Part shown: one piece after another, positions 12,713 to 57,422 of the stretch
Position numbering within the stretch: position 1 is the stretch's first letter
Layout: each line of letters opens with the position of its first letter
IMG/VR virus record: IMGVR_UViG_3300048496_000015
Direction: 5' to 3' (one strand)
Source of the DNA: a virus
Taxonomy: Duplodnaviria > Heunggongvirae > Uroviricota > Caudoviricetes
DNA: 64,000 bases
Position numbers and translations under genes: made by a program
Notes under the pieces: generated by a model
Seen by the model: only the letters and a program-made list of their open reading frames with translations
The model's database searches: none
Told to the model about the DNA's origin: nothing

Positions 12713-13018
12713 TTACCCTCTAATTAAGGAAGGACGAATCCCTCGTTTCCGGCGATCTTCTCGGTGCAATTTTCTGTAATCTTCGATGCCTAGCGCAACG
12801 TAGTGTTCAATCTTCTCAAAAAATTCCGGATCTTCAGCTTTAACAGGACCCTTGGGGGTTAATACTTTGTTCTTGAATACCTGAAGAATGTGAACCTGAC
12901 CTCCTTTTACGGAGGCATACCACATTCGCGAGTCATCACCCATGACTAGATTCTCATGCCAAGACTTTTTAGATTCGTTGGCCCAATCTGTGATCAAGTC
13001 ATTAAGACTAGGTGACAC
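12713..13018 (-). CDS. small protein of the DPxFF family
   Basis: ...AEDPEFFEKIEHY; N-terminal LITDWANE helix. Confidence 0.55.
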   Translation of the reverse strand: MSPSLNDLITDWANESKKSWHENLVMGDDSRMWYASVKGGQVHILQVFKNKVLTPKGPVKAEDPEFFEKIEHYVALGIEDYRKLHREDRRKRGIRPSLIRG

Positions 13019-13547
13019 TTTTCCTCTCCTTCAACCGCCTGTCGTACAGAACAATATTTACAGCCGCTGCCAGATTTGCGCAATGCTTGGTGGGAATTAC
13101 GACAAATCTGTGACAGTGCATAACGTGGACCTTCTCTAGTGAGCCGTCTTCAGGACCAAAGACGTACACCGCATTCTCGGGGTGTATGAAGTCCGGAAGA
13201 CTCTCTGCGTTCGGACGGATCTCAACAGCAACCGGCGTTATACCCTTAGGGAAGTGATCAAAGGGATAGTCGAATTGAACCATTTCAACATCTCGATATC
13301 CTTTCATCCTCTCCTCGCGAGGAAGACGTTCACCCTTCTCAAGGTCGAGAGATACCCTGTTGCCGGTCCACCACACCTGCTTCGCATCGAAGTTCGACGC
13401 GGCGCGGACCGCCGCACCAACGTTATGTGCATACTTAGGGTTGATTAAAATTACGGACGGTGTGGTACCCACCGGAGGTACATTCTTACCCCAGATTGCT
13501 TTTTTGAACCTTCCATCTAGAGGAGCGAGGTCTTCTTCACGCACCAA
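13008..13547 (-). CDS. SPOUT-class (SpoU/TrmH-like) RNA 2'-O-methyltransferase
   Basis: NVGAAVRAASNF, VYVFGPEDGSL and IPT...NLAAAVNIVLYD motifs. Confidence 0.8.
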   Translation of the reverse strand: MVREEDLAPLDGRFKKAIWGKNVPPVGTTPSVILINPKYAHNVGAAVRAASNFDAKQVWWTGNRVSLDLEKGERLPREERMKGYRDVEMVQFDYPFDHFPKGITPVAVEIRPNAESLPDFIHPENAVYVFGPEDGSLEKVHVMHCHRFVVIPTKHCANLAAAVNIVLYDRRLKERKSVT

Positions 13548-13977
13548 ACCATTCCTTAAGTTGGAGTGTCAATTTGTCGAAGAGTTGAGGATCAGCGATG
13601 TTTAATTTGGGCCATCTCTCAGGCCCATAACGGAGCTGAAGCTCGGGTTCATTAAACTCCACAACGAAATCACGATAACCACTACCGGAATTAACACTGA
13701 CATCAATGGAGTCGCTGTACGTCCCTCCGGTGAGGTCACACTTCTTATAATGAGAGGAGAGAGGTTTTAATGCTTTACGGACAATCCGCTTTCGCATATT
13801 CAGCTTGCGAACCAAGGGATTTGGCTTCGTACGCTCGAACGTCCCTAAATCCTCAGTTTGGATCTTCAGATCCCGAATAACAGGAAGGGAATACAACTTG
13901 CTTTCAAAATCAGCGATTGTGGTCGATTCTGGAATGTTTAAATCAAGTGTAACCCTAAGTTTCCTCAACTTCATCAA
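13537..13977 (-). CDS. hypothetical protein, DPxF-family-like C-terminus
   Basis: ...WPKLNIADPQLFDKL at the C-terminus. Confidence 0.5.
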   Translation of the reverse strand: MMKLRKLRVTLDLNIPESTTIADFESKLYSLPVIRDLKIQTEDLGTFERTKPNPLVRKLNMRKRIVRKALKPLSSHYKKCDLTGGTYSDSIDVSVNSGSGYRDFVVEFNEPELQLRYGPERWPKLNIADPQLFDKLTLQLKEWFGA

Positions 13978-15840: not shown

Positions 15841-16302
15841 CTAGAGATTAGAACCAACCATATTCACTAACTCATCCTTACGAAGGGATGAATTCAAGTT
15901 CGATGCCTTAACCAAGTACCAGATAGTTTTATTATCGCGATAACTCTTCAAACCCTTTTGGGCGTTTCGTTTCCCCAAGTCGAGGAAAGAGATTCGCCGG
16001 TAAAACTCATCCTCAAAAAGAAGATATGTCACCCCAGCCTTCCCTTCATAAACCGAAAGGAAGCCACGTCCAGGTCGGAATTTGAGCATGACCTTCCTAT
16101 CGGGAGAAGCTAACATTTGGTTAGGGATGTCACTCCACGTTTCTATATCCCATCGGAAGGGGAATTCGACTTCGTGGACGTCGGAAATTTGTCCCTTCCT
16201 GAGAGACTTCCTTAGGATTCCAGGGATACGAAGATTATTCCTTACCGGGCCTATGAAGTCGACGGGGACGACCTGAACATCCTTGATTTCAAGGCGATTC
16301 AT
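15841..16302 (-). CDS. hypothetical protein
   Basis: track ORF; start trimmed to the ATG at 16302 (MNRLEIKD), ATGA overlap with the upstream small ORF. Confidence 0.5.
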   Translation of the reverse strand: MNRLEIKDVQVVPVDFIGPVRNNLRIPGILRKSLRKGQISDVHEVEFPFRWDIETWSDIPNQMLASPDRKVMLKFRPGRGFLSVYEGKAGVTYLLFEDEFYRRISFLDLGKRNAQKGLKSYRDNKTIWYLVKASNLNSSLRKDELVNMVGSNL

Positions 16303-16463
16303 ACCCACTGAACCTCTCGAGTTCCATCTAACCAGCGATGGACAAAATCTCGTAATTCATCTAGACACGTCTGGCAGAGCACAGCAGTGATCAAGATACC
16401 TTCTCCAGGCATGATCTTAGTTTCACTACCGCTTCGCTTGCGACAGCGAGAACAAGCTACCAT
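16300..16463 (-). CDS. small zinc-ribbon protein (54 aa), absent from the track
   Basis: MVACSRCRKRSG...LCQTCLDE; TAATG overlap upstream, ATGA overlap downstream. Confidence 0.35.
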
Positions 16464-17670: not shown

Positions 17671-17908
17671 ACTTATTCTTCCTCATCTTGCGTTTCGGTA
17701 AGAGATTGTGTTTGGCTAGAATTAGGTCGCTGAGCCGATATTCAGAGTCGACATACTTATCCCATACTTCAACAAAGCTTGCTGCTGCTCGCAAGCCCGC
17801 ATCCCATGCTTCACGATCTCGAAGGATTGGATGTTGGTCCTTCTTGGCCTTCTCATCCTTCTGCCATTCGAGAAAAGCAACGGGGACGGTCCAAATGGGT
17901 TCAGTCAT
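17594..17908 (-). CDS. hypothetical protein
   Basis: 104-aa track ORF; Arg/Ser-rich tail looks out-of-frame. Confidence 0.4.
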   Translation of the reverse strand: MTEPIWTVPVAFLEWQKDEKAKKDQHPILRDREAWDAGLRAAASFVEVWDKYVDSEYRLSDLILAKHNLLPKRKMRKNKYESPRGRKGSRSRRSRGRGKSNRTH

Positions 17909-18043
17909 AATCTTCTTCGTGAAGATGCATCCACACTCGTGCCATCAAGAAATTCATCCTCACATCAGGATTATCGCTGATGCGATATGGAATCTCATCT
18001 ACAAGATTAGAGCGTGACTTAGGTGCTACGATTTTGAAATTCA
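17901..18043 (-). CDS. small protein of the N-terminal MNFKIVAP family
   Basis: MNFKIVAPKSRSNLVDEIPYRIS...; the track extends it to 18125 because no upstream in-frame stop exists. Confidence 0.4.
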
Positions 18044-18150
18044 TGACTCTCAACTCAAAATCCCCGCCACAACCACCATAGTTGTGACGACGAGGGCAAT
18101 CACCATCAAGATTCTTGCATCCCATGGTCGCTCAGTTTGACACTTCATTA

Positions 18151-19944: not shown

Positions 19945-20784
19945 TTACTCCTTGTTCAGAAGTCGTCGGCCAATTGCGACAGGCAGACTAGGAAATTCAT
20001 CTTTCTCGTCACAACACTGACGATGGAGAGTGTAGCCAGGCTTGGATTTGAGTAACTTTCCACACCTCATGCACTCCAAGTCCTTGAACTCGGGGAGGAA
20101 TTTATCAGCGAATTCTCCCAACTCGGAGAGAGGAAGCTTCTGTGCCAGAAAACTCACCATCTTCGACCCAACCTGCTGGCGGAGTCTGGTCCCCGGCGCG
20201 ATCCATTTCTTCTCTGCCAAAACCTTGAGGCGATCAGCGGGGAATCGCTCGATGATAGCTTTCATCTGCGCCCAATCCCAGCTGGAAGCATACTCAGAAA
20301 ACTTAACGTTCGCCAGAGCAACTTCAAGTACTTCAATATCAAGGTATTTAATACTACTTGCCTCAAGCATATAGAGCTTGCTGGGGGCAAGCGTTAGCAA
20401 ATTGGACTTTCCGGCCTCTACCAGACGAGGTGCGATGGTCTTGTAAGCGTAGTTGGCGTTCCAGTTGGTGGATCCCTCAATAGTCTTCATAACTTCTTCA
20501 GCTTGAGGGCTGGTGACATCAACGGCTTTCGCCACATCGTTGATATGGCGATCATCGGTCAAGAAATACTTGCACATTTCGGGCTGACTTTCAAGAATCT
20601 TGCCCATGTTCCGCTGAGCATATTCCATCACAGCGTCATCGAAGAACTTGAAGTCGAAATTCGGGTCGGCCAACAGCCGAGCGTACTTGCTACTCTCGCG
20701 ATCGAGTGCCATCTCTTCCTCCATTCTACAAACAGTGAATTTTAACAGCCTTGATTGCTTTCTCGAAGAAATCAGGGTCAGCAA
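19945..20784 (-). CDS. hypothetical protein (279 aa)
   Basis: long track ORF. Confidence 0.6.
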   Translation of the reverse strand: MLTLISSRKQSRLLKFTVCRMEEEMALDRESSKYARLLADPNFDFKFFDDAVMEYAQRNMGKILESQPEMCKYFLTDDRHINDVAKAVDVTSPQAEEVMKTIEGSTNWNANYAYKTIAPRLVEAGKSNLLTLAPSKLYMLEASSIKYLDIEVLEVALANVKFSEYASSWDWAQMKAIIERFPADRLKVLAEKKWIAPGTRLRQQVGSKMVSFLAQKLPLSELGEFADKFLPEFKDLECMRCGKLLKSKPGYTLHRQCCDEKDEFPSLPVAIGRRLLNKE

Positions 20785-21016
20785 GATTCATTTGTCGAAA
20801 TTCTGGCCGCATCACCCAACCACTCTTTGTTGGGGGGCCATAACAAGTTACCTTAACAACATCGCCCTTTCCAGGTTGGGGAAATTGGAAAATAATGCCG
20901 CCTTTTACATCCTTCAGAGAGTGGACAGCGACTTTATACTTCTGATCATAGGATCCTTGGATTCCCATATCTAGCTGGGACCACAACTCTTGGGCGGCTA
21001 GGCGGCTTAAGTCCAT
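20726..21016 (-). CDS. small protein of the DPxFF family (tandem with 21024-21311)
   Basis: ...MNLADPDFFEKAIKAV. Confidence 0.55.
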   Translation of the reverse strand: MDLSRLAAQELWSQLDMGIQGSYDQKYKVAVHSLKDVKGGIIFQFPQPGKGDVVKVTCYGPPTKSGWVMRPEFRQMNLADPDFFEKAIKAVKIHCL

Positions 21017-21023: not shown

Positions 21024-21311
21024 TTACGTTAGAAACTTGTTAATCATATCCATGGCTTTTTCAAAAAACCTGGGATCGGAAATATGGAGGTTGACGGGCT
21101 CCTTCTTGCGCGAAGTCACAATGACTGTTCCAGGTTTGTACTTCCAGTGACGGAAGTAGAGCACCATCTCATCAGGACCGTGATTCACATGTCGTTTAGA
21201 CATGAGACTCAACTTCCTTCCATCAAGGGTCAAGGTCGCTCCACAACCCTTAGGGATCATGCGCCACAGAGCGTCAGCCGCTATGTGGATCAAATCAGGC
21301 TCTTTTGTCAT
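21024..21311 (-). CDS. small protein of the DPxFF family
   Basis: ...LHISDPRFFEKAMDMI. Confidence 0.55.
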   Translation of the reverse strand: MTKEPDLIHIAADALWRMIPKGCGATLTLDGRKLSLMSKRHVNHGPDEMVLYFRHWKYKPGTVIVTSRKKEPVNLHISDPRFFEKAMDMINKFLT

Positions 21312-26753: not shown

Positions 26754-26994
26754 CTTTCTTCTTCCTTCCGAACAGGTCTTCACGGATTTCTTTGAGTCCC
26801 GCCAGCTTATCTCCAAGCTCTTGAGCTGATTTGAGTCCAGCCGCTACCTTTCGCCACCTTGCTCGCTCGCCCCGGTAGCGCTTAAGAAAAGCAACAGCTC
26901 GACTTAGAAGGAGGGTCTCGGCATTCTCCATGCCGTCTTTGAGGCCGATGAGGCCCTCAATGACCTCGTCTATTTCTTTTTCTTTCACGTTCAT
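26737..26994 (-). CDS. hypothetical protein
   Basis: 85-aa track ORF. Confidence 0.4.
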   Translation of the reverse strand: MNVKEKEIDEVIEGLIGLKDGMENAETLLLSRAVAFLKRYRGERARWRKVAAGLKSAQELGDKLAGLKEIREDLFGRKKKDAESK

Positions 26995-27238
26995 GCTCCT
27001 CCATAGCGTCAGCCATTTTAGGTCCTGTAATTCCTAAGATCTCTAACCCCCAAATGGGCTCCATCTTACGAAACTTGGGGCTTGTCTTCTCAAGAAGAAG
27101 ACGGTCGAGTTTCGCTTGACCGCGACACTCTGCTTCCTTCCAACGATTCCCTAATCTAAGGAAAGGTTGGCGTCCTCGAGCCTCGAAATTCGCAGCATAA
27201 CTGGGGGCCACGATCTTGAAATTAGGCTCCTGCATCAT
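26957..27238 (-). CDS. small protein of the N-terminal NFKIVAP family
   Basis: MMQEPNFKIVAPSYAANFE... Confidence 0.5.
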   Translation of the reverse strand: MMQEPNFKIVAPSYAANFEARGRQPFLRLGNRWKEAECRGQAKLDRLLLEKTSPKFRKMEPIWGLEILGITGPKMADAMEEHERERKRNRRGH

Positions 27239-28432: not shown

Positions 28433-28958
28433 GTTTTTCTACCTTATTAAGAAGGGCTCGGATTTTCTTATGATCCTCATTGTGATAGGAGATCTTACGC
28501 TCCGTTGCCTCTATATTGTCCTTAATCATCCTAACCAACAATTCTTCGAGCTTCTCGCCCACCTTCTCGTGGTTATGTAAGGGGATAAAGATTTCGAGAT
28601 GTCCCCTGCCAAACGTTAGACCTCCCTTAAGGGCGTTGTGGCGGGCCGCATATATCTGATCTAGGTGACCAATAGTCACACAAATTCTTCGATGATCTTG
28701 ATCATTGGAGAATAGCTCATGTGTCAGAACTCGTGCGCCGATCTTATCGAGCCTGCGCTCACGCCAGACTTTCTGGATATAGTCAGCCACAACCCGTTTT
28801 TGTCCTTCCGAGTTGTAATGTTTCGTACAGAGTAAGTCTCCCGAAAGCTTCTTCAAGCAACGACTATGATAGTGACCATCAGCACCGCACTTCTCACAGA
28901 TGGCAAACCGGTTGTTATAGATTAGACCTTTACATTTATCGCAGAAAGTCTTAGTCAT
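28410..28958 (-). CDS. zinc-finger protein, member D of the 'ADYxKKxW' family
   Basis: start trimmed to MTKTFCDKCKG by analogy with members A-C; VVADYIQKVW...ICVTIGHL core. Confidence 0.6.
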   Translation of the reverse strand: MTKTFCDKCKGLIYNNRFAICEKCGADGHYHSRCLKKLSGDLLCTKHYNSEGQKRVVADYIQKVWRERRLDKIGARVLTHELFSNDQDHRRICVTIGHLDQIYAARHNALKGGLTFGRGHLEIFIPLHNHEKVGEKLEELLVRMIKDNIEATERKISYHNEDHKKIRALLNKVEKHVASELQ

Positions 28959-29205
28959 CGCTCCATCTTCCACTCGCGTGCGGTTCTCCCTTACCATAAC
29001 CACGGGGATCGAGACGGTTGATTTCCTTAAATTGGCCCTCATCCATGATCTCGATCTCGCCTGCCGTCTTGTGACCGTAAGCCATCCGTCCTTTTTTCAT
29101 CGGGACGTCTCCGTCCGCGATTACACATGGAACGCAGGTTCTCGCGTTAGGGAGGGCTTCCAGGCGCTCAGCGGAGATTAGCTTACCGCAACGTTCACAA
29201 CTCAT
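28951..29205 (-). CDS. TraR/DksA-family C4 zinc-finger protein
   Basis: CERCGKLISAERLEALPNARTCVPC. Confidence 0.8.
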   Translation of the reverse strand: MSCERCGKLISAERLEALPNARTCVPCVIADGDVPMKKGRMAYGHKTAGEIEIMDEGQFKEINRLDPRGYGKGEPHASGRWSDD

Positions 29206-29333
29206 TCATCCTCCTCTAATTCTTCATATTCCTCTTCGTCTTCTTCAACTTCTTCGTCGTCGTACCAGCCAAATTGTTCTCGCCAATCATTTTGGAAGAG
29301 AGCAATTTTGAGTGCAATTCTTTTGAAGTTCAC
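29205..29333 (-). CDS. small acidic protein (42 aa), GTG start, NFK N-terminus
   Basis: (GTG)NFKRIALKIALFQNDW...EEDEEEYEELEEDE; ATGA overlap with traR-like gene. Confidence 0.3.
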
Positions 29334-29605
29334 GTTCTCTGTCGCTTTCCGTTGAGTGTGTACCACTGACCTTCGCTCCAAGCGCCTAGGATCTCTTCAA
29401 TGACTGATTTCTTAGCAGAAAGAGTCACCCGATAAAGACTCTTACCAACTTTATCACATGTTAGGATCTTGAATTCGCCTCTGGCGAGGGCCACGCCTAG
29501 GTTAGGATCCTTGAGCATATAACGCATCGCTTGTTTGCGTGCGGAGGGCGTGATTGCATCGTCAAGATCCGGCCAACCTCCATGTTGTCTATATGAGAGT
29601 CTCAT
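29330..29605 (-). CDS. hypothetical protein
   Basis: track ORF trimmed to ATG 29605 (MRLSYRQHGGW); ATGA overlap upstream. Confidence 0.5.
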   Translation of the reverse strand: MRLSYRQHGGWPDLDDAITPSARKQAMRYMLKDPNLGVALARGEFKILTCDKVGKSLYRVTLSAKKSVIEEILGAWSEGQWYTLNGKRQRT

Positions 29606-29721
29606 GGACGAATTCCTCCTGGAGGGGGATTCCAATAACTACTGCATTCATAACAGCAGTTACATTCAGGGTTCTCCTGGCAGAGATCCATATCGCTATG
29701 AGCGATGATTGTGAAGTTCAA
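29602..29721 (-). CDS. small Cys-rich protein (38 aa), TTG start, NFTII N-terminus
   Basis: (TTG)NFTIIAHSDMDLCQENPECNCCYEC...; coupled overlaps on both sides. Confidence 0.3.
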   Translation of the reverse strand: MNFTIIAHSDMDLCQENPECNCCYECSSYWNPPPGGIRP

Positions 29722-29867
29722 AATTCGTCATCCTCATTACACGATCTACAATCACAGATTACATCCGAGATAAAGTAGCCAGAAGGATTACAATCGATGC
29801 AATCGCATTGCTTTTCATGGGGGACTTTATCAAGCGCCTCTTCGGGAGCAATGATTGTGAAGTTCAT
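29718..29867 (-). CDS. small Cys-rich protein (49 aa) of the MNFTIIAP variant
   Basis: MNFTIIAPEEALDKVPHEKQCDCIDCNPSGY... Confidence 0.4.
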   Translation of the reverse strand: MNFTIIAPEEALDKVPHEKQCDCIDCNPSGYFISDVICDCRSCNEDDEF

Positions 29868-30031
29868 GATTCTCTAATACAGCCTTCACACTGGCAGCGG
29901 ACGCTAGAAAGATCACCGCAGATTTCATAACCCTGCTCAGCTACCCAATGTTCACAGCGACCGCACTCCCATGCGGGAGTGCCCTGCTTCTCTGCCTTGA
30001 ACATCTCGGACCCACAGTACTTACAAAGCAT
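29864..30031 (-). CDS. small zinc-ribbon protein (55 aa)
   Basis: MLCKYCGSEMF...WECGRCEHW...; TAATG upstream, ATGA downstream. Confidence 0.4.
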   Translation of the reverse strand: MLCKYCGSEMFKAEKQGTPAWECGRCEHWVAEQGYEICGDLSSVRCQCEGCIRES

Positions 30032-30423
30032 TATTCGGCTCCCTTCTTCTCTTTCTTAAGATACTTCGACTTCATGTTCTTCGTGCGCTCAACAATCAGC
30101 GCCGCGATTCGATCAATGAGATCAGGAACAGCTAGAGGAATGACCTCAAATTCCTGATGCCCGTACCCGTACTTCCTTCCCCTCGCCTGGAACTTGAGTT
30201 TCTCTCCTTCCACATGGACTTCGCTGATAAGAGAACTCATGGGAGAGGGCCACCGGAAAGATAATCTACTCCCTCTATAAGTGACATACCCTGTGCTGAC
30301 CGCAACCGCAACCTCGTTTGGATCAATACCAGCCTTCTTAAAGGCTTCTAGGAAGGTCTCACTGAGAATCATCATCAGTAACAGAATACCATTTCTTCTG
30401 AACGTAGAAGTCACCAACATCAA
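30031..30423 (-). CDS. hypothetical protein, paralogue of 19547-19942
   Basis: AFKKAGIDPNEV, EGEKLKFQARGRKYG and NMKSKYLKKEKKG are shared. Confidence 0.55.
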   Translation of the reverse strand: MMLVTSTFRRNGILLLMMILSETFLEAFKKAGIDPNEVAVAVSTGYVTYRGSRLSFRWPSPMSSLISEVHVEGEKLKFQARGRKYGYGHQEFEVIPLAVPDLIDRIAALIVERTKNMKSKYLKKEKKGAE

Positions 30424-30432
30424 CTGAGGATC

Positions 30433-30909
30433 TCATTTAACACCCTTCGTCGCGGCCCACTTCCGTATCAGCTTTTGCGTTTTCTTCCGTTCTCTCTTTG
30501 CCTTATCGGTTTCAACTAGTTCCCGCAACTTTTTGTCATAGACATCTTTCTTCTTGAGACTCTTAACAAGCTTGGTGTCAGTCTCGAACAGCGTTCTTAA
30601 AAGACCAAGAAGGTCAGATGTCGGTTCAGCAATGTTCATGTAATAAACCCATCCATCTTTATTCGTTGACAGGTCTTGCTTGCGCGAGAAGATGACCTCA
30701 ACCTCATTTTGAACGAACACGTGGATTGCAGGGATAAAGTATCCTCCCCGAATCTGGAGATGAGGTTGGATATAAGGTGTCGAACCGCCGTACAAGGACA
30801 CCTTAAATCCCTCGTTAATGAGCCACACCTTTAGTTGGCCTAGCGTGGCAACTTTCTCTTGATGGGTCATTTCGCAAACTGACGCTTGGCCAGCTCCTCC
30901 TTGTACCAC
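30433..30909 (-). CDS. hypothetical protein
   Basis: 158-aa track ORF. Confidence 0.55.
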   Translation of the reverse strand: MVQGGAGQASVCEMTHQEKVATLGQLKVWLINEGFKVSLYGGSTPYIQPHLQIRGGYFIPAIHVFVQNEVEVIFSRKQDLSTNKDGWVYYMNIAEPTSDLLGLLRTLFETDTKLVKSLKKKDVYDKKLRELVETDKAKRERKKTQKLIRKWAATKGVK

Positions 30910-31838
30910 TCAGGAAGGCCAGCAGTCGCTCCACGCAAGATCTTGGGAAGCGCCCACTTTAGAAGCGCCTCAGCGATGGGCGAGTTGGGACCCTTCGCCT
31001 CTTCCTCAGTGAGATCCTTGTGGACTTCCTTGATAAGCTTGCCGATGTCCTTCGGAGCATTTTCAAGCTCACCACGTTCCTCGAGGTGCATTACTGCCTT
31101 GCTCCAGCGAGCAGGGGTTTGATACGACATGATGAGCTTCTGAAGGATATCACCCTGCTTGGGGTTGGATTCCTTCCACTCGACCCCGTGCTTCTCCTTG
31201 AACTCCTCGCTGACGAACTTCCCCATCATGGCCTTGCCATCCGAACCAAAACGGTTGTAGTTCTTGACGACAACACCTTCGATCTTCTCTTCGCCTAGGA
31301 CACTCATGGTCTCGTCCACGAGCTTCCGGAAGACGTCGTAGTTATCGATCTTGCCACGGAAGAAACAAGGGACGCACTCGAGGCCGATCCGATCGGCTTC
31401 AGCCTTCTTCTCTTCGGGAGAGAGATACTGCTCGTACGAGGGGCTGATATCGAAGATGATCAGATGGTCTTTGGGGACCCGGCCGTAAGCCCGAGTGTGA
31501 TGCTTGGGCTTCGACAGGTATTCTGCCCGGTAGGTCCAGCCCAGCTTGAGATTGGGTTGAAGCTTTAGGATGGTTTCTACCGCCTTGATGAAGAGCTTCT
31601 CAGGGGCAATCAGGTTGATCTGGGCACCCTTCGAACGGGCACGCAGCTCGGGACCCTCACCAAAATCGAAGACACCAAAGCTGAATTGGGACCCGTCCAC
31701 TTTCTCTTCGAGGATCACTTCCTCCAGGAAAAGCTCTGTGATCGCATGGTGACCCAGAGCGTGGATCTTCGTGTATGAATGATACGACGTTGCGGTTACA
31801 GGCTTCTTTGCAACCAGGGGCTTCTCTTCAGGAACCAT
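30867..31838 (-). CDS. Rnl2-family RNA ligase (covalent nucleotidyltransferase)
   Basis: motif I EEKVDGSQFSF (KxDG), motif IV EGVVVKN, motif V region; start trimmed to MVPEEKP. Confidence 0.75.
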   Translation of the reverse strand: MVPEEKPLVAKKPVTATSYHSYTKIHALGHHAITELFLEEVILEEKVDGSQFSFGVFDFGEGPELRARSKGAQINLIAPEKLFIKAVETILKLQPNLKLGWTYRAEYLSKPKHHTRAYGRVPKDHLIIFDISPSYEQYLSPEEKKAEADRIGLECVPCFFRGKIDNYDVFRKLVDETMSVLGEEKIEGVVVKNYNRFGSDGKAMMGKFVSEEFKEKHGVEWKESNPKQGDILQKLIMSYQTPARWSKAVMHLEERGELENAPKDIGKLIKEVHKDLTEEEAKGPNSPIAEALLKWALPKILRGATAGLPEWYKEELAKRQFAK

Positions 31839-32181
31839 TCTTTCCCTCACAATCTTTACAGCAGCACTTGATACATACGCATTCGCTACCACCACATGGA
31901 GTAGTGCAATGCTTATGACTACAACCACATGTCTCGTAATCGGAGAAGGGAAGTATCGACGCTAACTGCTTCCTTTCTCGATCATAGACAACCTTGAGCA
32001 TCTGCTTTTCATGCTCAACCAGGAAGATGGAAACCCGGTGGGAGTCTTTATGGTAGAATCTCGCATCTCCCACACGGATCTTGTCCACGATACGACACTG
32101 GTCCTCCTCTCTGAGGACCAGCCCAAATCGCTGGAAGGCACGCCGTTGAGCGTGCAACCGCTGAGATTTATCTTTCTTCAT
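31828..32181 (-). CDS. hypothetical protein with C-terminal Cys cluster
   Basis: 117-aa track ORF. Confidence 0.5.
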   Translation of the reverse strand: MKKDKSQRLHAQRRAFQRFGLVLREEDQCRIVDKIRVGDARFYHKDSHRVSIFLVEHEKQMLKVVYDRERKQLASILPFSDYETCGCSHKHCTTPCGGSECVCIKCCCKDCEGKNGS

Positions 32182-32183
32182 GT

Positions 32184-32276
32184 TAATCTCCTACCCCGCC
32201 GAAGCCGAGACTGAGGTACCACCGATAGTAAGTTATGTTACGTCTCCTCGCCGGTGGCGCTATAATCTTGAAATTC
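32184..32276 (-). CDS. micro-ORF (30 aa) with an MNFKIIAPP N-terminus
   Basis: MNFKIIAPPARRRNITYYRWYLSLGFGGVGD; sits exactly between two genes. Confidence 0.3.
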
Positions 32277-32277
32277 A

Positions 32278-32643
32278 TCAAGCCCATGCAAACCTGTGGA
32301 AGGATTCAATCTCCTTTGAGCGGACACATTCATCGCAGATTGGTTTAATAGGTCCATCTGTGTCCTGAAAGACTCCAGTTGCTGTGGCAGCGCAGCGAGA
32401 GCACTCCCACTCTTCGTCCTCTTCCTTCTCCTGAGGGATGAAGCGCTCATCAATCTCGCCCATTGTTTTTTGGATCGCTTTGAACCAGAGAGTCTCGTCG
32501 TGACCCGAGCATCCAAATTCGCTCAAGATCGTCTTGAGATGATCAAACATCTCAAATGCTTTATCGTGGGTCTTGCAACGCTGAATGATGGGGAAAGGCA
32601 TCCCCTGCTCGGGCTCTAAGACTTTACAAGCACACGTAGACAT
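32278..32643 (-). CDS. hypothetical Cys-rich protein
   Basis: 121-aa track ORF. Confidence 0.5.
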   Translation of the reverse strand: MSTCACKVLEPEQGMPFPIIQRCKTHDKAFEMFDHLKTILSEFGCSGHDETLWFKAIQKTMGEIDERFIPQEKEEDEEWECSRCAATATGVFQDTDGPIKPICDECVRSKEIESFHRFAWA

Positions 32644-32893
32644 ATTGCATCCTCCTAATCATGTCAGCGAGATCTTCAAAGAAGTTGGGGTCGGCCATGT
32701 TTAATATACGCGGACGACCTATCCCCATGACTGTGATCTTCGGTAGCTCATCTAGAATGAGCCTACCATGAGCCGAATTATCGATGAGAGATTCGATATA
32801 AAAGACGTCTCCAGCGTCGTTGATCTTGATCGGGGTCCCGCGATATTCCTCTTTCAGCCATTCAACAAGAGCTGTCTCAAAGTCGAGTTTCAT
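32624..32893 (-). CDS. small protein of the DPxFF family
   Basis: ...ILNMADPNFFEDLADMIRRM. Confidence 0.55.
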   Translation of the reverse strand: MKLDFETALVEWLKEEYRGTPIKINDAGDVFYIESLIDNSAHGRLILDELPKITVMGIGRPRILNMADPNFFEDLADMIRRMQYVYVCL

Positions 32894-33093
32894 CGTCTCA
32901 TCCAGGTTCTACCTGTCCAAACGACCCTAGACCACGCATTACAGTGGACCACATGAGGAATACCCTCTTTGTTGACGTGTCTAAAAAACTCAAGTGCTTC
33001 CGGGAATTTAGACGGAGGAGTCGTGTGATCTTTATAGAGAAAGACCTTTCCCAACAAATAGCCCGTGTAAGGGACCAAAATCTTGAAGTTCAT
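32890..33093 (-). CDS. small protein of the MNFKI family
   Basis: MNFKILVPYTGYLLGK...; GAGGAAG SD. Confidence 0.5.
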   Translation of the reverse strand: MNFKILVPYTGYLLGKVFLYKDHTTPPSKFPEALEFFRHVNKEGIPHVVHCNAWSRVVWTGRTWMRR

Positions 33094-33587: not shown

Positions 33588-33920
33588 TTAGTGATGGGGG
33601 TCCCACTTCATCATCTTATCAATGTGACGCTTGAGCTTCGCGAACATGTGAGGATCGGTGATACTCACTTCTTTCCTCGCGAAGCACCCTCGAGACCTTC
33701 GTGCCAATGGATGAGAGTAGATGATTTTCATTTGATCTCCCTCACCTTGAAGATTGAAAACCGTATACCAGATGAAAGGATCAAACTTGATATCCTTCGG
33801 GATCAGTTTGAGTTGAGGACCAATCTGACCATCCTCTTCAGCTCGGAGAGTGTAAACATCAATAGCTGGATACCTATCTCGTATCCAATACCTGATTATT
33901 TCGATGCCAGTGATAGTCAT
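33588..33920 (-). CDS. small protein of the DPxFF family
   Basis: IIRYWIRDRY...SITDPHMFAKLKRHI. Confidence 0.55.
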   Translation of the reverse strand: MTITGIEIIRYWIRDRYPAIDVYTLRAEEDGQIGPQLKLIPKDIKFDPFIWYTVFNLQGEGDQMKIIYSHPLARRSRGCFARKEVSITDPHMFAKLKRHIDKMMKWDPHH

Positions 33921-34048
33921 TTCTTCTCCTTGAACTTCTGGATGATCTCAACCATCAAGCAGATGTAAAGGGTTAAGGCTGTCCCTTCCACACCGAAGGT
34001 CAGGAGACCTAATCCGATAAGGAATAAAAAGAGAAGGAAATTTCTCAT
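33917..34048 (-). CDS. small hydrophobic peptide (43 aa)
   Basis: MRNFLLFLFLIGLGLLTFGVEG...; ATGA overlaps at both ends. Confidence 0.35.
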   Translation of the reverse strand: MRNFLLFLFLIGLGLLTFGVEGTALTLYICLMVEIIQKFKEKK

Positions 34049-34245
34049 TTTACCTCAGGTAAAACCTCAGGACCCCAATCTAGATCATAGTCTAGATTCC
34101 AATGCCAATCGGAATAATGACCTTGGGGCCGTTGGCACCGGATAGGCTTATTGTCTGGAGTCAATGCAGACCAACAAGCATTTTCACAAAGAACCTCTTT
34201 ATAGGCAGCATTTGGGGCGAAGATCTTAAATTTTTCTGAACTCAT
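34045..34245 (-). CDS. small protein, NFKI-family variant (KFKIFAP)
   Basis: MSSEKFKIFAPNAAYKEV... Confidence 0.45.
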   Translation of the reverse strand: MSSEKFKIFAPNAAYKEVLCENACWSALTPDNKPIRCQRPQGHYSDWHWNLDYDLDWGPEVLPEVK

Positions 34246-34556
34246 TCACCCGCCGCTTCTACCGTAGCAGACATAGAACCTGCACAACGTGGGATCCTTG
34301 GGTCTCGCCCGTAAGCGTGGACCTTATCTCTCTTGAATTCAGCATATTCAAGAGCGCCCGAATATACAATCACCTTTCCGGTCGCATCGACCTCAACTGC
34401 CATCCTGAATGCCTTCTCCTTGGAGTGACCGAAGACCACTCCAAGCATTTCGATCACATACTCGTATGTGTGATCATCATCATTCCACAGGATAACGTTG
34501 TAAGGAGGCTGTGTCTTGACATCCTCCTTGACTTCATCTTTTACTTCTGTCGACAT
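34242..34556 (-). CDS. clpS: ClpS, Clp protease N-degron adaptor (copy 1)
   Basis: YNVILWNDDDHTYEYVIEMLGVVFGHSKEKAFRMAVEVDATGKVIVYSGALEYAEFKRDKV. Confidence 0.85.
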   Translation of the reverse strand: MSTEVKDEVKEDVKTQPPYNVILWNDDDHTYEYVIEMLGVVFGHSKEKAFRMAVEVDATGKVIVYSGALEYAEFKRDKVHAYGRDPRIPRCAGSMSATVEAAGE

Positions 34557-34983: not shown

Positions 34984-35142
34984 CTACCTCACCAATCCCA
35001 CGTACACGAGATCCCTCGACTTCGACTTCTTCGATCCATCCACGCTCGTCTCCGTCACGGTGACTTGACGGCCCTTTCGGGTCTTCATCTTCCTCCGGAC
35101 GCCGTGCTTCGCGTCGGTCCTGGAGTAGAAACCGTGAACCAT
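34984..35142 (-). CDS. small basic protein (52 aa)
   Basis: MVHGFYSRTDAKHGVRRKMKTRKGRQV...; fills the gap between two genes. Confidence 0.3.
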   Translation of the reverse strand: MVHGFYSRTDAKHGVRRKMKTRKGRQVTVTETSVDGSKKSKSRDLVYVGLVR

Positions 35143-35143
35143 C

Positions 35144-35488
35144 TTACTGTTGCTGCGCCGCATCGTTTTCCTCCTTGTAAGCTTCCGTATCCAACTGGTT
35201 TAAGCGAGCATTATTTCTCTCTACCCAGAGATTGAATTCTGGTCTTTCTTGAAGGGTAGTGAGAATCTCCATTGTCTTGGGCTCATCAAGCTGCCCTGGC
35301 AGAACATAGAGCTTCCAGATCCTTTTAAAACGTTTGAACCCCTCCAGATCTCTCACCGCATCATGCTCATATGCGGCGAGTATCTTCATCCGATCGATGC
35401 CGAGGATCTTGAAGTTGCTCCTACTCTCCATTCTTCTCCGCCTTGAGCTCCGAGTCGGCCCTGCTCCATCCATCAATTTCGGTTCCAT
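35144..35488 (-). CDS. hypothetical protein, NFKI family, tandem paralogue of 35573-35806
   Basis: ...SNFKILGIDRMKILAAYEHDAVRDLEGFKRF. Confidence 0.55.
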   Translation of the reverse strand: MEPKLMDGAGPTRSSRRRRMESRSNFKILGIDRMKILAAYEHDAVRDLEGFKRFKRIWKLYVLPGQLDEPKTMEILTTLQERPEFNLWVERNNARLNQLDTEAYKEENDAAQQQ

Positions 35489-35572: not shown

Positions 35573-35806
35573 TCACAAGCTCTTCTCTTTCTTCTGATCT
35601 TCTCGAGAGAGATCTACAACGGTAAATCCATTCCGGCCCCACCACGAGCCGTAACGAAGACCGTAAACTTCGTGCATCTTCTTTCCGTCACAATGTGCGT
35701 TAAAAAACTTTTTGAGCCTTTGAAACCAAGCAATATCCTTAACTGCATCGTGTTCAAATCGTTCCAACTCCCTCATTCGATCGATGCCGACTATCTTGAA
35801 ATTCAT
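35573..35806 (-). CDS. hypothetical protein, NFKI family
   Basis: MNFKIVGIDRMRELERFEHDAVKDIAWFQRL. Confidence 0.55.
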   Translation of the reverse strand: MNFKIVGIDRMRELERFEHDAVKDIAWFQRLKKFFNAHCDGKKMHEVYGLRYGSWWGRNGFTVVDLSREDQKKEKSL

Positions 35807-35952
35807 CTTCCACTCGAGTAGAGACTACCGGTCACTGCCATGGCCAAGAACCCGATCAGCGAAAGCGGCCAGATAGCCATCAGCCCGATACATTTCCAAT
35901 CGACACGTCTCCCGCGTTTAGGACCCCAGAAGGCCGTTAGCCCGAGTAACAT
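35804..35952 (-). CDS. small membrane peptide (49 aa)
   Basis: MLLGLTAFWGPKRGRRVDWKCIGLMAIWPLSLIGFLAMAV...; ATGA overlap with MNFKIVGID gene. Confidence 0.35.
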
Positions 35953-35978
35953 GATTATCAAGTACGCCCATACCCAAA

Positions 35979-36227
35979 TCATTTCTTATCATGGTCACTT
36001 GCATGACCAAGCGCCGCTGCTTGAGCTAAAAGGCCCCATAAAAGCATCACTATGGCGATGGGAACAGAGATCCAAGGGGTCATCCACATGTTTTTGATGA
36101 GTTCGATACATCCCTCTTGGCCTACGATGTCCTGAAAAAGAGACATGGCTGCAGCCATAGAGAGAACTCCGCACCACCATGAAGTCCCAGCAACAGACTT
36201 CATTGAATGTTTCTTCTCTTTTGCCAT
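35979..36227 (-). CDS. small membrane protein
   Basis: 82 aa with two hydrophobic segments. Confidence 0.5.
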   Translation of the reverse strand: MAKEKKHSMKSVAGTSWWCGVLSMAAAMSLFQDIVGQEGCIELIKNMWMTPWISVPIAIVMLLWGLLAQAAALGHASDHDKK

Positions 36228-36527
36228 TTAATCCTCCGGCTCAATAGAGAAGGTCAGAGGGAATTTATTCATTCGGGCTATCGCGTGAGCCTTCTCTACA
36301 TGGAATTCAGCTCGTTCGAGAGGTTCCACCACAACCAGGGCTACTTGCTTCGAGTGAGCCTCGAGCATGATCCGCGTAGATTCCGCGAGATCCTTATTGA
36401 AGACTTTGGATAGAACCAGAACTACGAAATCCATCGGAGTCTTCGGATCATCGTGGATGAGTACCCGATACATCTTGATGTATCCGGTACGCGTTTTAGT
36501 CTCCTGAATGGTATCCGTATCAGACAC
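36228..36527 (-). CDS. clpS: ClpS-like adaptor (copy 2)
   Basis: YRVLIHDDPKTPMDFVVLVLSKVFNKDLAESTRIMLEAHSKQVALVVVEPLERAEFHVEKA. Confidence 0.8.
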   Translation of the reverse strand: MSDTDTIQETKTRTGYIKMYRVLIHDDPKTPMDFVVLVLSKVFNKDLAESTRIMLEAHSKQVALVVVEPLERAEFHVEKAHAIARMNKFPLTFSIEPED

Positions 36528-40961: not shown

Positions 40962-41190
40962 CGAATTTCACTCCTAATCCTTCAAGCTCTTTACGAGCAA
41001 GATCAAGATACCTGCGCTTTTGATCTCTATCCATCTTCTTCCAAGTCCCAGCACGAGCAGGGAGCTCAATATTGTCTAGAGATTTGCGACCATCTCTAAA
41101 CGTAGATTCAATGTACTTGAGCTTGCTCTCCGGCGAGGTGTAGAAGTGTTGCTGGGCGTAGAGATCAACCAAGAATTCGGAAGGTGTCAT
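40951..41190 (-). CDS. hypothetical protein
   Basis: track ORF trimmed to MTPSEFLV (ATGA overlap). Confidence 0.45.
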   Translation of the reverse strand: MTPSEFLVDLYAQQHFYTSPESKLKYIESTFRDGRKSLDNIELPARAGTWKKMDRDQKRRYLDLARKELEGLGVKFDEA

Positions 41191-41351
41191 GATTTCTTGG
41201 CGCGCTTGGTGTCCCACCAAGGCATCTGAGTCATGGCATCAGTATCAAAATGATCCTTACACATGTGCACGTCACCGATGCCATCGACCCACACATGTTC
41301 GAGCATTGCGTCCGTACCGCGAGCTTCACAAACGTAGCAGAAGGGTTCCAT
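41187..41351 (-). CDS. small Cys/His protein (54 aa)
   Basis: MEPFCYVCEARGTD...HMCKDH. Confidence 0.35.
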   Translation of the reverse strand: MEPFCYVCEARGTDAMLEHVWVDGIGDVHMCKDHFDTDAMTQMPWWDTKRAKKS

Positions 41352-41374: not shown

Positions 41375-41524
41375 CTTAAATACTACGGTCTCGTTTCATT
41401 CGTTCCTCACGAAAGGGATTAGCCATGTCAGGGACTCCTTTTGGCTTCTTCCCAAGATAGCGGCAAAGTTCAAAACCGCCGACAATAAAACAAAAGAGAA
41501 CAATAACCCCGATAATCCAGATCA
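41375..41524 (-). CDS. small membrane peptide (~49 aa)
   Basis: MIWIIGVIVLFCFIVGGFELCRYLGKK...; ATGA overlap upstream. Confidence 0.35.
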
Positions 41525-41851
41525 TAACGGCCCCATTTCTCTTATTCGCTGACCAACAACATGGTCATTGTAGGACCGAAGCATCCTGTAGAACTTCGGG
41601 AAGAACTCAGGATCAGCAGCAGGTAACTCTATTCCCGATTCAGGAAGGTGCATGTGTTCGAGGTTTTTTATCCACCTTACACTAGCGTCCTTAATGAGGA
41701 AAACAACGTTAGCAGTTTGGTGTTTAGGGAGATGATAGAGATATCGATACCCTAAATGCTCCCCCGTATGCCACTGACGAGGACTCGCATGAGCATCGTA
41801 CTCACTCTGAGCCGCCAACCAATCCTTGATGATCCATTGTAGGTGGATCAC
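41522..41851 (-). CDS. small protein of the DPxFF family
   Basis: IIKDWLAAQSEYD...ELPAADPEFFPKFYRML. Confidence 0.55.
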   Translation of the reverse strand: MIHLQWIIKDWLAAQSEYDAHASPRQWHTGEHLGYRYLYHLPKHQTANVVFLIKDASVRWIKNLEHMHLPESGIELPAADPEFFPKFYRMLRSYNDHVVGQRIREMGPL

Positions 41852-44236: not shown

Positions 44237-44490
44237 ACCTCCTTATCAAGCTCTCTAAGGATTTCAAGCAGAAATGTAATTGATTCTGGATTATGTAGTC
44301 GGAGCTTCTGATGGCGTACCCCATCAATTTCGATACGAGGGTCATTACCGTCAGAAATCCAGATATCTACATCCCTCCATTTAATACGGCGAATATTCAC
44401 CCTGATGTGGCCGTAAAAGCTTTTGGCTTCAAAACCTTGATCTCTAAGATAAGATGCAAAGAGCTCGCTCGTGCCTAACATAGAATCCAC
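44233..44490 (-). CDS. hypothetical protein
   Basis: 85-aa track ORF. Confidence 0.45.
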   Translation of the reverse strand: MDSMLGTSELFASYLRDQGFEAKSFYGHIRVNIRRIKWRDVDIWISDGNDPRIEIDGVRHQKLRLHNPESITFLLEILRELDKEV

Positions 44491-44744
44491 GAATGAAGTT
44501 GATCAAAGAATTTAGGGGCGGCTGGATGGAGTTCAATCGTGAATGGCCACTCATTCGCAGTGTCCTCCCCAACATGCGTCCTCGCCATTCCAGCATTCCA
44601 TTTAGCGACATTGACCAATCCATCTGGAGTTTCCATGAGCGAAGTCTCACCAATGTGGAGGGAACCTGAGCCGCGAGGATCAGTCATCGTTACCTTATAA
44701 CCTTCCTCTTCCGCCCACATCCTTAAGAGAATCATAAGGTTCAT
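44475..44744 (-). CDS. small protein, DPxFF-family-like
   Basis: LLRMWAEEEGY...ELHPAAPKFFDQLHSW. Confidence 0.5.
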   Translation of the reverse strand: MNLMILLRMWAEEEGYKVTMTDPRGSGSLHIGETSLMETPDGLVNVAKWNAGMARTHVGEDTANEWPFTIELHPAAPKFFDQLHSWILC

Positions 44745-45136: not shown

Positions 45137-45269
45137 TTTCTCCTCCTTGACTTATGAAATTCTCCGCTTCTTTCCTTGTAGTAAAAGAAGCCGAATAAAC
45201 AATGGCGGGGCTTCCGATGAGGATAAAAGCGTCGAAGAACGCATTTTCTCCAATCCAGGTTTTGGTCAT
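45081..45269 (-). CDS. hypothetical protein (questionable)
   Basis: 62 aa; 56-nt overlap with 44741-45136. Confidence 0.3.
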   Translation of the reverse strand: MTKTWIGENAFFDAFILIGSPAIVYSASFTTRKEAENFISQGGENESRHTRQADAEEGNHNQ

Positions 45270-45619
45270 TTCACATATTTCCTGCCGAGGGTCTTGCGAA
45301 GGAGAGACTTCTCCTCGTCCATGAATTTCTGATGGCTCTTGTGTTCTCTTTTAGTATGACCTCGCAAGAAGGACATGAAGTCTTTCAGTCGAGCAAAGAA
45401 ATTGGGGTCTGCTGCTTTCACTAAGAATCCCCAATAGGAACAAGTCACTTCATCTTCGTGAATCACCAGAATATGAATGGAGTTCGCCTTTCCTGGAGGC
45501 GCGATGTAATATCTCTTGTTATGGAGACCATCAAAAAACCAGCTTCGGAACTCGGTGTTACGGATCCACTTCTCGATCATCCGTGAGAGAGTGATTTCTT
45601 TCGCCATCTCTTCCTCCAT
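45266..45619 (-). CDS. small protein of the DPxFF family
   Basis: MIEKWIRNTE...LVKAADPNFFARLKDFM. Confidence 0.55.
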   Translation of the reverse strand: MEEEMAKEITLSRMIEKWIRNTEFRSWFFDGLHNKRYYIAPPGKANSIHILVIHEDEVTCSYWGFLVKAADPNFFARLKDFMSFLRGHTKREHKSHQKFMDEEKSLLRKTLGRKYVK

Positions 45620-45623
45620 GAAA

Positions 45624-45700
<77 letters not shown>

Positions 45701-45705: not shown

Positions 45706-46209
45706 CTACAGGTAGATTCCCATCTGCTTGCGGACTTCGGAGATGACTCTCCTTATATCTCTTGATGTGATATGTTTAGGCATATCGTTCTTTGCACGCA
45801 AAGATGTCTCAACCTGCTCGACAATTAGGTCATCATCTATGTCACCAGCTTCGAGGACCTTCCTCACTTCTGCGTTGATGTTCGGGGTATTGGCATACCT
45901 GATTGACATTTTTAGCATGTGGGGGTTCAAGAACATTGTGAGACCAAGGTTGCCTGAAGTCATTTGGTTCCTCACCCTCTCAACTGCGGCGGGTCCATAT
46001 TCAGGCAATAAATGCTCTGTAATCCTTTCGGCTAGGATTCTCGGTAACTTGATCTTATCTGCGGGGATCTCGTCCCACGGAGCCAGAACGGAATCTCCTT
46101 CGATCTTCCACTGATCGAGCCATTCTATCCAGTTCGCATCGAGGCCTTTTTTAAGCTCGTCAAGTGTCTTGCCTCGAAGAATCTCGATCTTGAGTGAGTG
46201 ATATTTCAT
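45706..46209 (-). CDS. hypothetical protein
   Basis: 167-aa track ORF. Confidence 0.55.
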   Translation of the reverse strand: MKYHSLKIEILRGKTLDELKKGLDANWIEWLDQWKIEGDSVLAPWDEIPADKIKLPRILAERITEHLLPEYGPAAVERVRNQMTSGNLGLTMFLNPHMLKMSIRYANTPNINAEVRKVLEAGDIDDDLIVEQVETSLRAKNDMPKHITSRDIRRVISEVRKQMGIYL

Positions 46210-46343
46210 TACATCCCTCTGGCGTAGTCGTACTGACCTTCTTCGATCTTTTTGGTTTCGATGATGCCACGAAGTCGGGCAATCTCTTGTAGGAGAGAGC
46301 GAACGATGATCGCCTCTTTGGAGAGCTTCTTTTTTCTTTTCAT
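46209..46343 (-). CDS. small basic protein (44 aa)
   Basis: MKRKKKLSKEAIIVRSLLQEIARLRGIIETKK... Confidence 0.3.
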   Translation of the reverse strand: MKRKKKLSKEAIIVRSLLQEIARLRGIIETKKIEEGQYDYARGM

Positions 46344-57412: not shown

Positions 57413-57422
57413 CTTGTCCCTT

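Follow-up and report, generated by a model that had tools for sequence, protein, structure and literature searches.

Translational coupling through ATGA or TAATG overlaps is a textbook feature of phage and bacterial operons, such as the early gene clusters of T4, the trp operon of E. coli and the ribosomal-protein operons. Phage and bacterial microproteins have been compiled in catalogues of small open reading frames (PMC11364881), and the under-annotation of such frames has been discussed (10.1101/511675; PMC5345727). Here we analysed a chain of five small open reading frames (ORFs) at positions 29202 to 30031, minus strand, of a 64,000-nucleotide (nt) stretch of DNA (the window) from the Caudoviricetes virus record IMGVR_UViG_3300048496_000015. 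The window is part of a 384,188-bp metagenomic jumbo-phage contig (Joint Genome Institute (JGI) sample 3300060479, Ga0589155_0000001), and shorter Logan and JGI assemblies of the same phage were used for comparison (L009 is the JGI 384-kb contig; L010 and L011 are from Logan). The best overall explanation, which we hold to be very probable, is that the chain consists of five genuine small coding genes, probably coupled, in an architecture that is normal for this genome. As in the textbook operons, the genes lie on the same strand with each start on or next to the upstream stop, and some have a weak or no Shine-Dalgarno (SD) sequence; no mechanistic difference from those operons was found, and here the arrangement is seen from the overlaps alone. 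Like the catalogued small ORFs, the micro-ORFs of the window encode 30-60 amino acids (aa), often with a Cys knuckle or a single membrane helix, and are lineage-restricted; unlike hidden small ORFs, most of them are already in metagenome pipeline calls.

By direct reading, five ORFs of 43, 91, 39, 49 and 55 aa cover the minus strand from 29202 to 30031 end to end, leaving no gap. The chain and its two flanking genes are as follows.

28951-29205, minus strand: traR/dksA-type C4 zinc-finger gene, 84 aa; ATG at 29205; downstream end of the chain; called by JGI and Logan.
29202-29333, minus strand: ORF1, 43 aa; GTG start in a GTGA overlap with the ORF2 stop; member of the MNF-leader family described below (NFKRIAL).
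29330-29605, minus strand: ORF2, 91 aa; ATG with an AGGAGG SD eight bases upstream, in an ATGA overlap with the ORF3 stop.
29602-29721, minus strand: ORF3, 39 aa; TTG start in a TTGA overlap with the ORF4 stop; SD-like AGGA; MNF-leader member.
29718-29867, minus strand: ORF4, 49 aa; ATG in an ATGA overlap with the ORF5 stop; MNF-leader member; called by JGI/IMG and Logan.
29864-30031, minus strand: ORF5, 55 aa; ATG in a TAATG overlap with the upstream gene; called by JGI.
30031-30436, minus strand: upstream gene, 135 aa in public assemblies; TAATG overlap with ORF5.

Each junction is a 4-nt or 1-nt stop/start overlap (ATGA at 29202-05, GTGA at 29330-33, ATGA at 29602-05, TTGA at 29718-21, ATGA at 29864-67 and TAATG at 30031). 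The first-pass annotation of this DNA had described such an overlap-linked chain of five ORFs between traR and the next gene, and the sequence bears this out, with GTGA and TTGA among the overlaps. Its ORF1, given as 29205-29333, had the right frame and start; the lower coordinate left out the stop codon (TGA, 29202-29204), which overlaps the traR ATG. An SD sequence, (A)GGAGG, precedes traR, and none precedes ORF1 or ORF4. The traR product passes PF01258 (TraR/DksA C4 zinc finger; 32.9 bits vs a cutoff of 24.9, E = 6.4e-8) and matches phrog_54 (DksA-like). The ORF1 product has a short amphipathic segment followed by a tail with 17 Asp/Glu in 20 residues, and that of ORF2 is featureless. The remaining three products are Cys-rich: ORF3 carries CxxxxxCxCCxxC, ORF4 two CDCxxC motifs, and ORF5 eight Cys including three CxxC. 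Judging from these patterns, the ORF3, ORF4 and ORF5 products probably bind metal. A single-sequence AlphaFold2 (AF2) model of ORF5 places three strands at residues 9-31, between the first two knuckles, at low confidence (predicted local distance difference test score, pLDDT, 53).

Short open frames arise easily by chance, and the micro-ORFs could in principle be such frames in non-coding spacers: the prior for a 40-codon open frame is about 15% at 50% GC, the chain members searched against protein databases (ORF2, ORF4 and ORF5) have no database homologue, and 5 of the 19 micro-ORFs considered here (the chain plus 14 listed in other gaps of the window) were never called. Exact same-strand tiling of 29202-29333 and of 29602-30031 was, however, reached in none of 2000 dinucleotide shuffles each (best cover 0.977 and 0.972, respectively), with an opposite-strand cover of 0 and 0.53. 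The window has 30 gaps of 85 nt or more between genes of at least 60 aa, and in 15 of these a same-strand ORF covered at least 80% of the gap; the opposite strand filled 0 of 30, and shuffles a mean of 1.2 and a maximum of 6. Coding potential was scored with a three-periodic second-order Markov, codon-phase model trained on 75 long minus-strand genes; cross-validated 45-codon gene fragments had a median of +0.16 per codon and wrong-frame ORFs a median of -0.29 to -0.37, these negative controls sitting inside real genes, which makes the test somewhat generous. All five chain ORFs were the best of six frames, with scores per codon of +0.05 to +0.27, values that true gene fragments also show, and at most 0.5% of wrong-frame control ORFs scored as high. 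The ORF1 frame led the six by at least 9 log units, ORF2 had the top score within the chain, and ORF5 scored at the level of long genes. The comparison with the codon usage of long genes, proposed with the first-pass annotation, came out in its favour: the proposed frame was best or tied-best of six for 18 of the 19 ORFs, the exception being 32183-32278. Together with a peptide-level leader located exactly at predicted starts, these data leave chance open frames a very improbable explanation. The chain region matched no Rfam family and contained no tRNA, and its RNA folding z-score of -1.8 was not unusual; a promoter and terminator scan from 26 to 34 kb gave no signal above chance.

The leader was recognised because ORF1, ORF3 and ORF4 all start with (M)NF[KT][IR]IA. 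From their N-terminal sequences, the three belong to an undescribed family that shares only a heptapeptide, (M)NF[KT]I[IV]A (MNFKIIA); no paper came up in a literature search for MNFKI. A position-specific peptide scan found ten leader genes in the window, all on the minus strand and with the motif at or within a few codons of the start (1069, 18044, 27226, 29333, 29721, 29867, 32278, 33093, 34236 and 35806), and no match in the window on the plus strand or away from starts. At the DNA level, the leader pattern with up to two mismatches gave ten matches, all on the minus strand, vs 0.12 expected; nine were family members at or near their starts, and the tenth lay inside a Band_7 gene. The tenth family member (34236) came from the peptide scan, not from the DNA pattern. 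The Band_7 match (NFKMLA, 11808-11826, minus strand) is in frame within a 323-aa gene and is probably a chance match. One more leader copy was found in 10 kb beyond the window (L226 11318). Apart from chain members and two micro-ORFs listed further below, the family members of the window are as follows.

17901-18044, minus strand: MNF-leader gene, 47 aa (MNFKIVAPK); frame ambiguous upstream of 18044.
26957-27238, minus strand: MNF-leader gene, 93 aa (MMQEPNFKIVAPS); motif at 27226.
32890-33093, minus strand: MNF-leader gene, 67 aa (MNFKILVP); ATGA overlap.
34045-34245, minus strand: leader-like gene, 66 aa (MSSEKFKIFAP); ATGA-coupled to the ClpS gene 34242-34556.
35573-35806, minus strand: MNF-leader gene, 77 aa (MNFKIVGID); ATGA overlap.

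For 17901-18125, two gene models compete, and the coding model cannot separate their frames: JGI has one 74-aa gene from ATG 18125, and the other model has two small ORFs, namely a 32-aa transmembrane-like micro-ORF (18050-18148, TAATG-coupled, ending 5 nt short of 18044) and, after it, the 47-aa MNFKIVAP gene.

Family members, 20-93 aa long and mostly ATGA-coupled and in tandem, turned up on two phage contigs only. In the second contig, IMGVR_UViG_3300048496_000010, eight small ORFs within 18 kb start with MNF[KR]I[IVF] (L014 243, 362, 765, 830, 991 and 1260; L066 8170 and 8292), again in ATGA-coupled tandems such as L014 243/362 and 765/830/991 and L066 8170/8292; the present phage has at least 11 copies in 84 kb. 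One subgroup has Trp at position 12 (MNFKIVAIEEMW, MNFKIIACAEMW and MNFRIVATIIHW). ORF4 aligns without gaps to a 41-aa ORF of the second contig (L066 8167-8292), the leader, His17 and CDCIxC falling at the same positions, and this was the only cross-phage homologue found for any chain member. Degenerate leader scans of IMG/VR and 185,579 genomes otherwise returned near-chance single matches, which were unrelated proteins (e.g., DHFR and lipoproteins). Two metagenome-assembled genomes of Acutalibacteraceae (L106 718 and 1958; L194 2232 and 4520) carry, twice per locus, 19-aa ORFs of the form MNFKII..FAFVK.FF.YV, a different thing that happens to match the first six leader residues.

Among 18 leader copies, the proportion of synonymous differences (pS) over codons 2-7 was about 1 and that of nonsynonymous differences (pN) 0.13, vs a pN of 0.71 over codons 9-14; because the copies were collected by a peptide pattern, the low pN is partly built in, which does not apply to the randomised synonymous sites. 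Since synonymous sites are randomised and the amino acids kept, the leader appears to be selected as a peptide, which in turn lends independent support to translation of these frames from these starts. As read from the peptide, the leader supports GTG 29333 for ORF1, where its motif begins exactly, over the JGI start at 29366, and it likewise favours TTG as the start of ORF3 and GTG as that of 929-1069. The recurrent 5' sequence of the family (NTGAAYTTYAARATY...) might instead act as nucleic acid, either as a reinitiation enhancer (restart or downstream-box-like) or as a boundary for cassette recombination. It always starts with NTGA and so supplies the upstream stop, is A/U-rich, lies mostly at coupled junctions, varies only by transitions in its Asn, Phe and Lys codons, and loosely resembles the T7 "downstream box" (AUGAAUCACAAAGUG). 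Such a role is nevertheless quite improbable: the synonymous positions are fully randomised, the Ala position uses all four codons, Ile/Val exchanges are conservative, the sequence upstream of the leader starts shows no conservation, no copy lies out of frame or on the other strand, and in two members (27226 and 34236) the motif sits 3-4 codons inside the ORF.

The leader also bears on whether ORF5, ORF4 and ORF3, or the whole chain, could be a larger gene broken by frameshifts, that is, a pseudogene. Consecutive chain ORFs do occupy different frames, ORF3, ORF4 and ORF5 are all Cys-rich, and a genuine 2-nt frameshift adjoins the chain at about 30377. Two nucleotides found there in L009, L010 and L011 (CC, plus strand) are missing from the window, the sole difference over 20 kb, and the upstream 135-aa gene is thereby split into ORFs of 25 and 130 aa; the deletion may be genuine variation, a fault of assembly or an edit. 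In the chain itself, however, a start codon lies exactly on the preceding stop at every junction, which random frameshifts would not produce five times, and ORF3 and ORF4 each open with the family leader, as separate genes would. The chain is moreover identical in four independent assemblies of the phage, and no longer homologue was found. We therefore regard a broken gene as hardly credible.

Several points weigh against five genuine genes, in addition to the generous controls of the coding model and the way in which leader copies were collected. The chain genes are known from metagenomic sequence alone. Searches of 1.84 or 5.8 billion proteins returned only self matches for ORF2, ORF4 and ORF5; ORF5 was an ORFan among the 1.84 billion representatives, where two extra matches, long Cys-repeat proteins aligning in 5-9 stretches, were read as compositional. 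Loci anchored on the RNA ligase (8 from IMG/VR and 42 from JGI metagenomes) showed at most 61% identity and no common neighbour gene, long or short, and ORF2 used as an anchor for related loci found nothing. The identity of the chain in its four assemblies leaves no variation for a dN/dS estimate. The unshared neighbours at the ligase-anchored loci include genes of 130-170 aa, not just short ones; as long neighbours are equally orphaned, the missing conservation of the micro-ORFs is uninformative.

ORF3 and ORF4 have the lowest coding scores of the chain, which likewise counts against the five-gene reading, and ORF3 in particular may have arisen by tandem duplication of the ORF4 start and now be decaying, a remnant without function whose ATG became TTG and which may be translated weakly or not at all. 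The first eight codons of the two are identical at 21 of 24 nt, there is a 27-nt direct repeat, and ORF3 has only 39 aa, a TTG start, a low score (+0.07 per codon) and no call in any public assembly of this phage. The micro-ORF 32183-32278, which the coding model scores as not coding-like past its leader, may be similar and is possibly a decayed copy. On the other hand, the ORF3 frame is still first of six and retains a Cys-knuckle pattern, and ORF3 fills its gap exactly, with the AGGAGG SD of ORF2 in its last codons and its TGA overlapping the ORF2 ATG; TTG and GTG starts are also common here, at about 32% of starts in a crude gene model. A remnant is thus somewhat unlikely for ORF3.

Translational coupling within the chain is likely, judging from its overlaps. 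We infer that the chain genes are probably transcribed onto one polycistronic mRNA, on which a ribosome ending at each TGA or TAA would likely restart at the overlapping start codon (NTGA or TAATG). Restarts of this kind would explain the weak initiation signals of ORF1 (GTG, no SD), ORF3 (TTG) and ORF4 (no SD). Overlap coupling is not special to micro-ORFs; it is the commonest junction type in the window. Among 164 junctions, a 4-nt overlap (-4) was the most frequent (30/164), followed by a 1-nt overlap (-1; 17/164), and the two together accounted for 47/164. An SD-like sequence was present before 60% of starts vs 28% of random positions; small genes (64%) were no different from large genes in this respect, and SD sequences were more frequent in overlapping (coupled) genes (77%) than in other genes (54%). 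The overlapping small-gene chain is thus ordinary for this genome, and large phage genomes are normally built in this way.

The first-pass annotation had further proposed that most other gaps of the window hold a coupled micro-ORF. As coding ORFs these stood up (13 of the 14 in the best frame), and the coupling did so in part: 12 of all 19 have a genuine overlap of the -4 or -1 type with the stop upstream, the rest being spaced by 0 to 54 nt or overlapping by 20 nt. The listed coordinates of the 14 also needed revision: three were shifted or out of register (32184-32276 becomes 32183-32278, 41375-41524 becomes 41376-41525 and 56264-56436 becomes 56269-56439), four stopped short of the stop codon (16300, 35804 and 57423 by one base; 932-1069 omits the stop at 929-931), and two have likelier starts (35163 rather than 35142 for 34984-35163, and 35982 rather than 35952 for 35803-35982). 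In corrected form, they are as follows.

157-279, minus strand: micro-ORF, 40 aa; 7 Cys, basic; no overlap with a neighbour; best frame; no SD; no public call.
929-1069, minus strand: micro-ORF, 46 aa; GTG in a GTGA overlap; MNF-leader (NFKIVAIEEMW); AGGTGA SD; no public call.
16299-16463, minus strand: micro-ORF, 54 aa; two CxxC; TAATG overlap; called by JGI.
32183-32278, minus strand: micro-ORF, 31 aa; MNF-leader (MNFKIIAPP); weakest candidate; not the best frame; never called.
33917-34048, minus strand: micro-ORF, 43 aa; one transmembrane-like helix; ATGA overlaps; called by JGI.
34984-35163, minus strand: small basic ORF, 59 aa; ATG 35163 with an AAGGAGG SD; JGI calls the 59-aa form; start 35142 less likely.
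35803-35982, minus strand: membrane micro-ORF, 59 aa; ATG 35982, ATGA overlap upstream; transmembrane-like; no public call.
41187-41351, minus strand: micro-ORF, 54 aa; CxxC and His residues; called by JGI.
41376-41525, minus strand: micro-ORF, 49 aa; N-terminal transmembrane-like helix; ATGA overlap; called by JGI.
46209-46343, minus strand: micro-ORF, 44 aa; basic, helical; GGAGGT SD; called by JGI.
46690-46857, minus strand: micro-ORF, 55 aa; acidic, helical; 7 nt past the upstream stop; called by JGI.
56269-56439, minus strand: micro-ORF, 56 aa; ATGA overlap; called by JGI.
57422-57583, minus strand: micro-ORF, 53 aa; DUF1660-like (C..GH.W ... CRRC); TGATG overlap; JGI/IMG call in another assembly.
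58960-59103, minus strand: micro-ORF, 47 aa; one transmembrane-like helix; begins immediately past the DUF4419 gene stop; JGI/IMG call in another assembly.

The coding score of 35803-35982 is ambiguous, and its stop overlaps the start of the MNFKIVG gene at 35806. Several micro-ORF products had been described as zinc ribbons or single-helix membrane peptides, which holds at the level of patterns, and only there: five ORFs of the set have at least two CxxC and four have a hydrophobic 19-mer (Kyte-Doolittle >2). The zinc-ribbon candidates (ORF5, 157-279 and 16299-16463) do contain CxxC pairs, with L37ae as the best Pfam match (E = 0.04, not significant). Pfam and PHROG searches with all micro-ORFs gave a single match, that of the 57422-57583 product to phrog_2670 (E = 2.6e-5) and Pfam DUF1660 (19.3 bits, below the 21.4 cutoff); it resembles the DUF1660/phrog_2670 small proteins of prophages in its C..GH.W...CxxC pattern, with a score below the Pfam gathering threshold. 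A 74-aa ATG ORF at 58732-58956 (minus strand) shares with 58960-59103 a stretch of 381 nt in which JGI called no gene on the 384-kb contig.

The expectation that a standard pipeline with a 60-aa cutoff would call none of these ORFs is true only with that artificial cutoff; 14 of the 19 are already in JGI/IMG or Logan calls as hypothetical proteins. A six-frame track misses them through its 60-aa cutoff only; JGI calls genes down to 34 aa here. Publicly called are ORF1 (43 aa in Logan, L011; 54 aa from GTG 29366 in JGI), ORF2 (in four assemblies), ORF4, ORF5 and ten of the other fourteen; never called are ORF3, 157-279, 929-1069, 32183-32278 and 35803-35982. On L009, JGI calls a 61-aa opposite-strand ORF (9828-10013, corresponding to 29593-29778 of the window, plus strand) that displaces ORF3 and ORF4. 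This ORF scores as non-coding and is missing from the Logan calls on L010 and L011, and it is probably a false positive. The earlier interpretation was thus right on the genes and their probable coupling and wrong in regarding them as hidden or unusual. As first stated, the chain finding matters little, as current metagenome pipelines predict most such genes. What is gained are five likely genes beyond the public calls (29602-29721, 157-279, 929-1069, 35803-35982 and 32183-32278), corrected starts, one flagged JGI opposite-strand call that is likely false (29593-29778), and a leader signature that can be used for fixing start codons.

The shared N-terminal leader is the one item of wider, if modest, interest. 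The chain products are lineage-specific ORFans. They are small Cys-rich, acidic or membrane peptides from an early-type block, for which a role in host takeover or anti-defence is most plausible, a guess that rests on general knowledge of phage early genes. A tentative idea, which we consider unlikely, is that a fast-diversifying set of small phage effectors uses the heptapeptide (M)NF[KT]I[IV]A(P) as a functional leader at the N-terminus. If it were true, the ATGA-coupled tandem arrays would serve as cassettes by which many small anti-host proteins are delivered or timed. If the leader served in targeting or turnover, a whole small-effector set in an uncultured jumbo-phage lineage would be marked by it, and leader fusions would give a handle on that set.

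By analogy, the leader could serve as a sorting or processing signal, for example for capsid targeting. The diverse internal proteins of T4 have nothing but a capsid targeting sequence (CTS) in common (PMC3012670). The MNF-leader family likewise comprises clustered, otherwise unrelated small proteins with a common short N-terminal leader (18 members on two contigs, only residues 1-7 being common), and, as in the T4 CTS, several leaders are followed by Glu-rich sequence (APEE, AIEE and ACAE). In contrast, the leader is unrelated in sequence to the T4 CTS (MKTYQEFIAE), many members have no Glu after it, and the genes lie among early-type accessory genes. We do not claim membership in the T4-type CTS internal proteins; the leader family is known from genes alone. 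Precursors of ribosomally synthesized and post-translationally modified peptides (RiPPs), such as the prochlorosins, combine a conserved leader with a hypervariable Cys-rich core, and the tandem small leader genes, with their conserved N-terminus and variable, in several cases Cys-rich, remainder, resemble them. Identity with RiPP precursors was rejected: the leader has only 7-8 aa, the Pfam matches of the neighbours include no LanM, YcaO or radical-SAM protein, and many members have no Cys.

A further speculation involves ClpS, which is known to be encoded by jumbo phages (PMC7824862). Two phage ClpS homologues lie in the window, at 34242-34556 and 36228-36527 (minus strand; Pfam E = 6e-20 and 2e-22, respectively). 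In an alignment with E. coli ClpS, the 36228-36527 protein keeps the His66 position and the TPM motif, and the 34242-34556 protein has Asp at the His66 position. ClpS-type N-degrons consist of an exposed N-terminal Phe, Leu, Trp or Tyr. Speculatively, the leader might be a pro-N-degron from which removal of Met-Asn exposes Phe-Lys-Ile for the two adaptors; as Phe is leader residue 3, a ClpS-type N-degron would need this prior removal.

The minus strand carries all genes of the window, and a crude maximum-score gene chain over it comprised 165 genes on one strand, about 96% coding. Recognisable products are a CCA-adding enzyme (best protein matches at 33-36% identity), an RNA ligase, a DNA ligase, a DUF2201 metallopeptidase, the two ClpS adaptors, Band_7 and SpoU. 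The window is an accessory-gene block of an uncultured jumbo phage, and megablast of 6 kb against 50,697 phage records gave no match and hence no near relative there. One of the "gaps" turns out to be an RNA gene, the sole one found in the window.

45624-45700, minus strand: tRNA-Met (CAT anticodon).

A second paralogous family, of 89-146 aa with the C-terminal motif (A/S)DPxFFEK(L/I), has at least 10 copies in the window and further copies in IMGVR_UViG_3300048496_000010; it has no Pfam or PHROG match.

9587-9931, window: ADPxFFEK family.
12713-13018, window: ADPxFFEK family.
13537-13977, window: ADPxFFEK family.
20726-21016, window: ADPxFFEK family.
21024-21311, window: ADPxFFEK family.
32624-32893, window: ADPxFFEK family.
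41522-41851, window: ADPxFFEK family.
44475-44744, window: ADPxFFEK family.
45266-45619, window: ADPxFFEK family.
53818-54171, window: ADPxFFEK family.
L014 1601-1879, second contig: ADPxFFEK family.
L066 101-418, second contig: ADPxFFEK family.
L066 8289-8420, second contig: ADPxFFEK family.

Public pipelines also disagree at 31828-32181 and 30867-31928 (minus strand), where JGI calls a 353-aa RNA ligase and no 117-aa ORF, and Logan has a 117-aa ORF and a 323-aa ligase.

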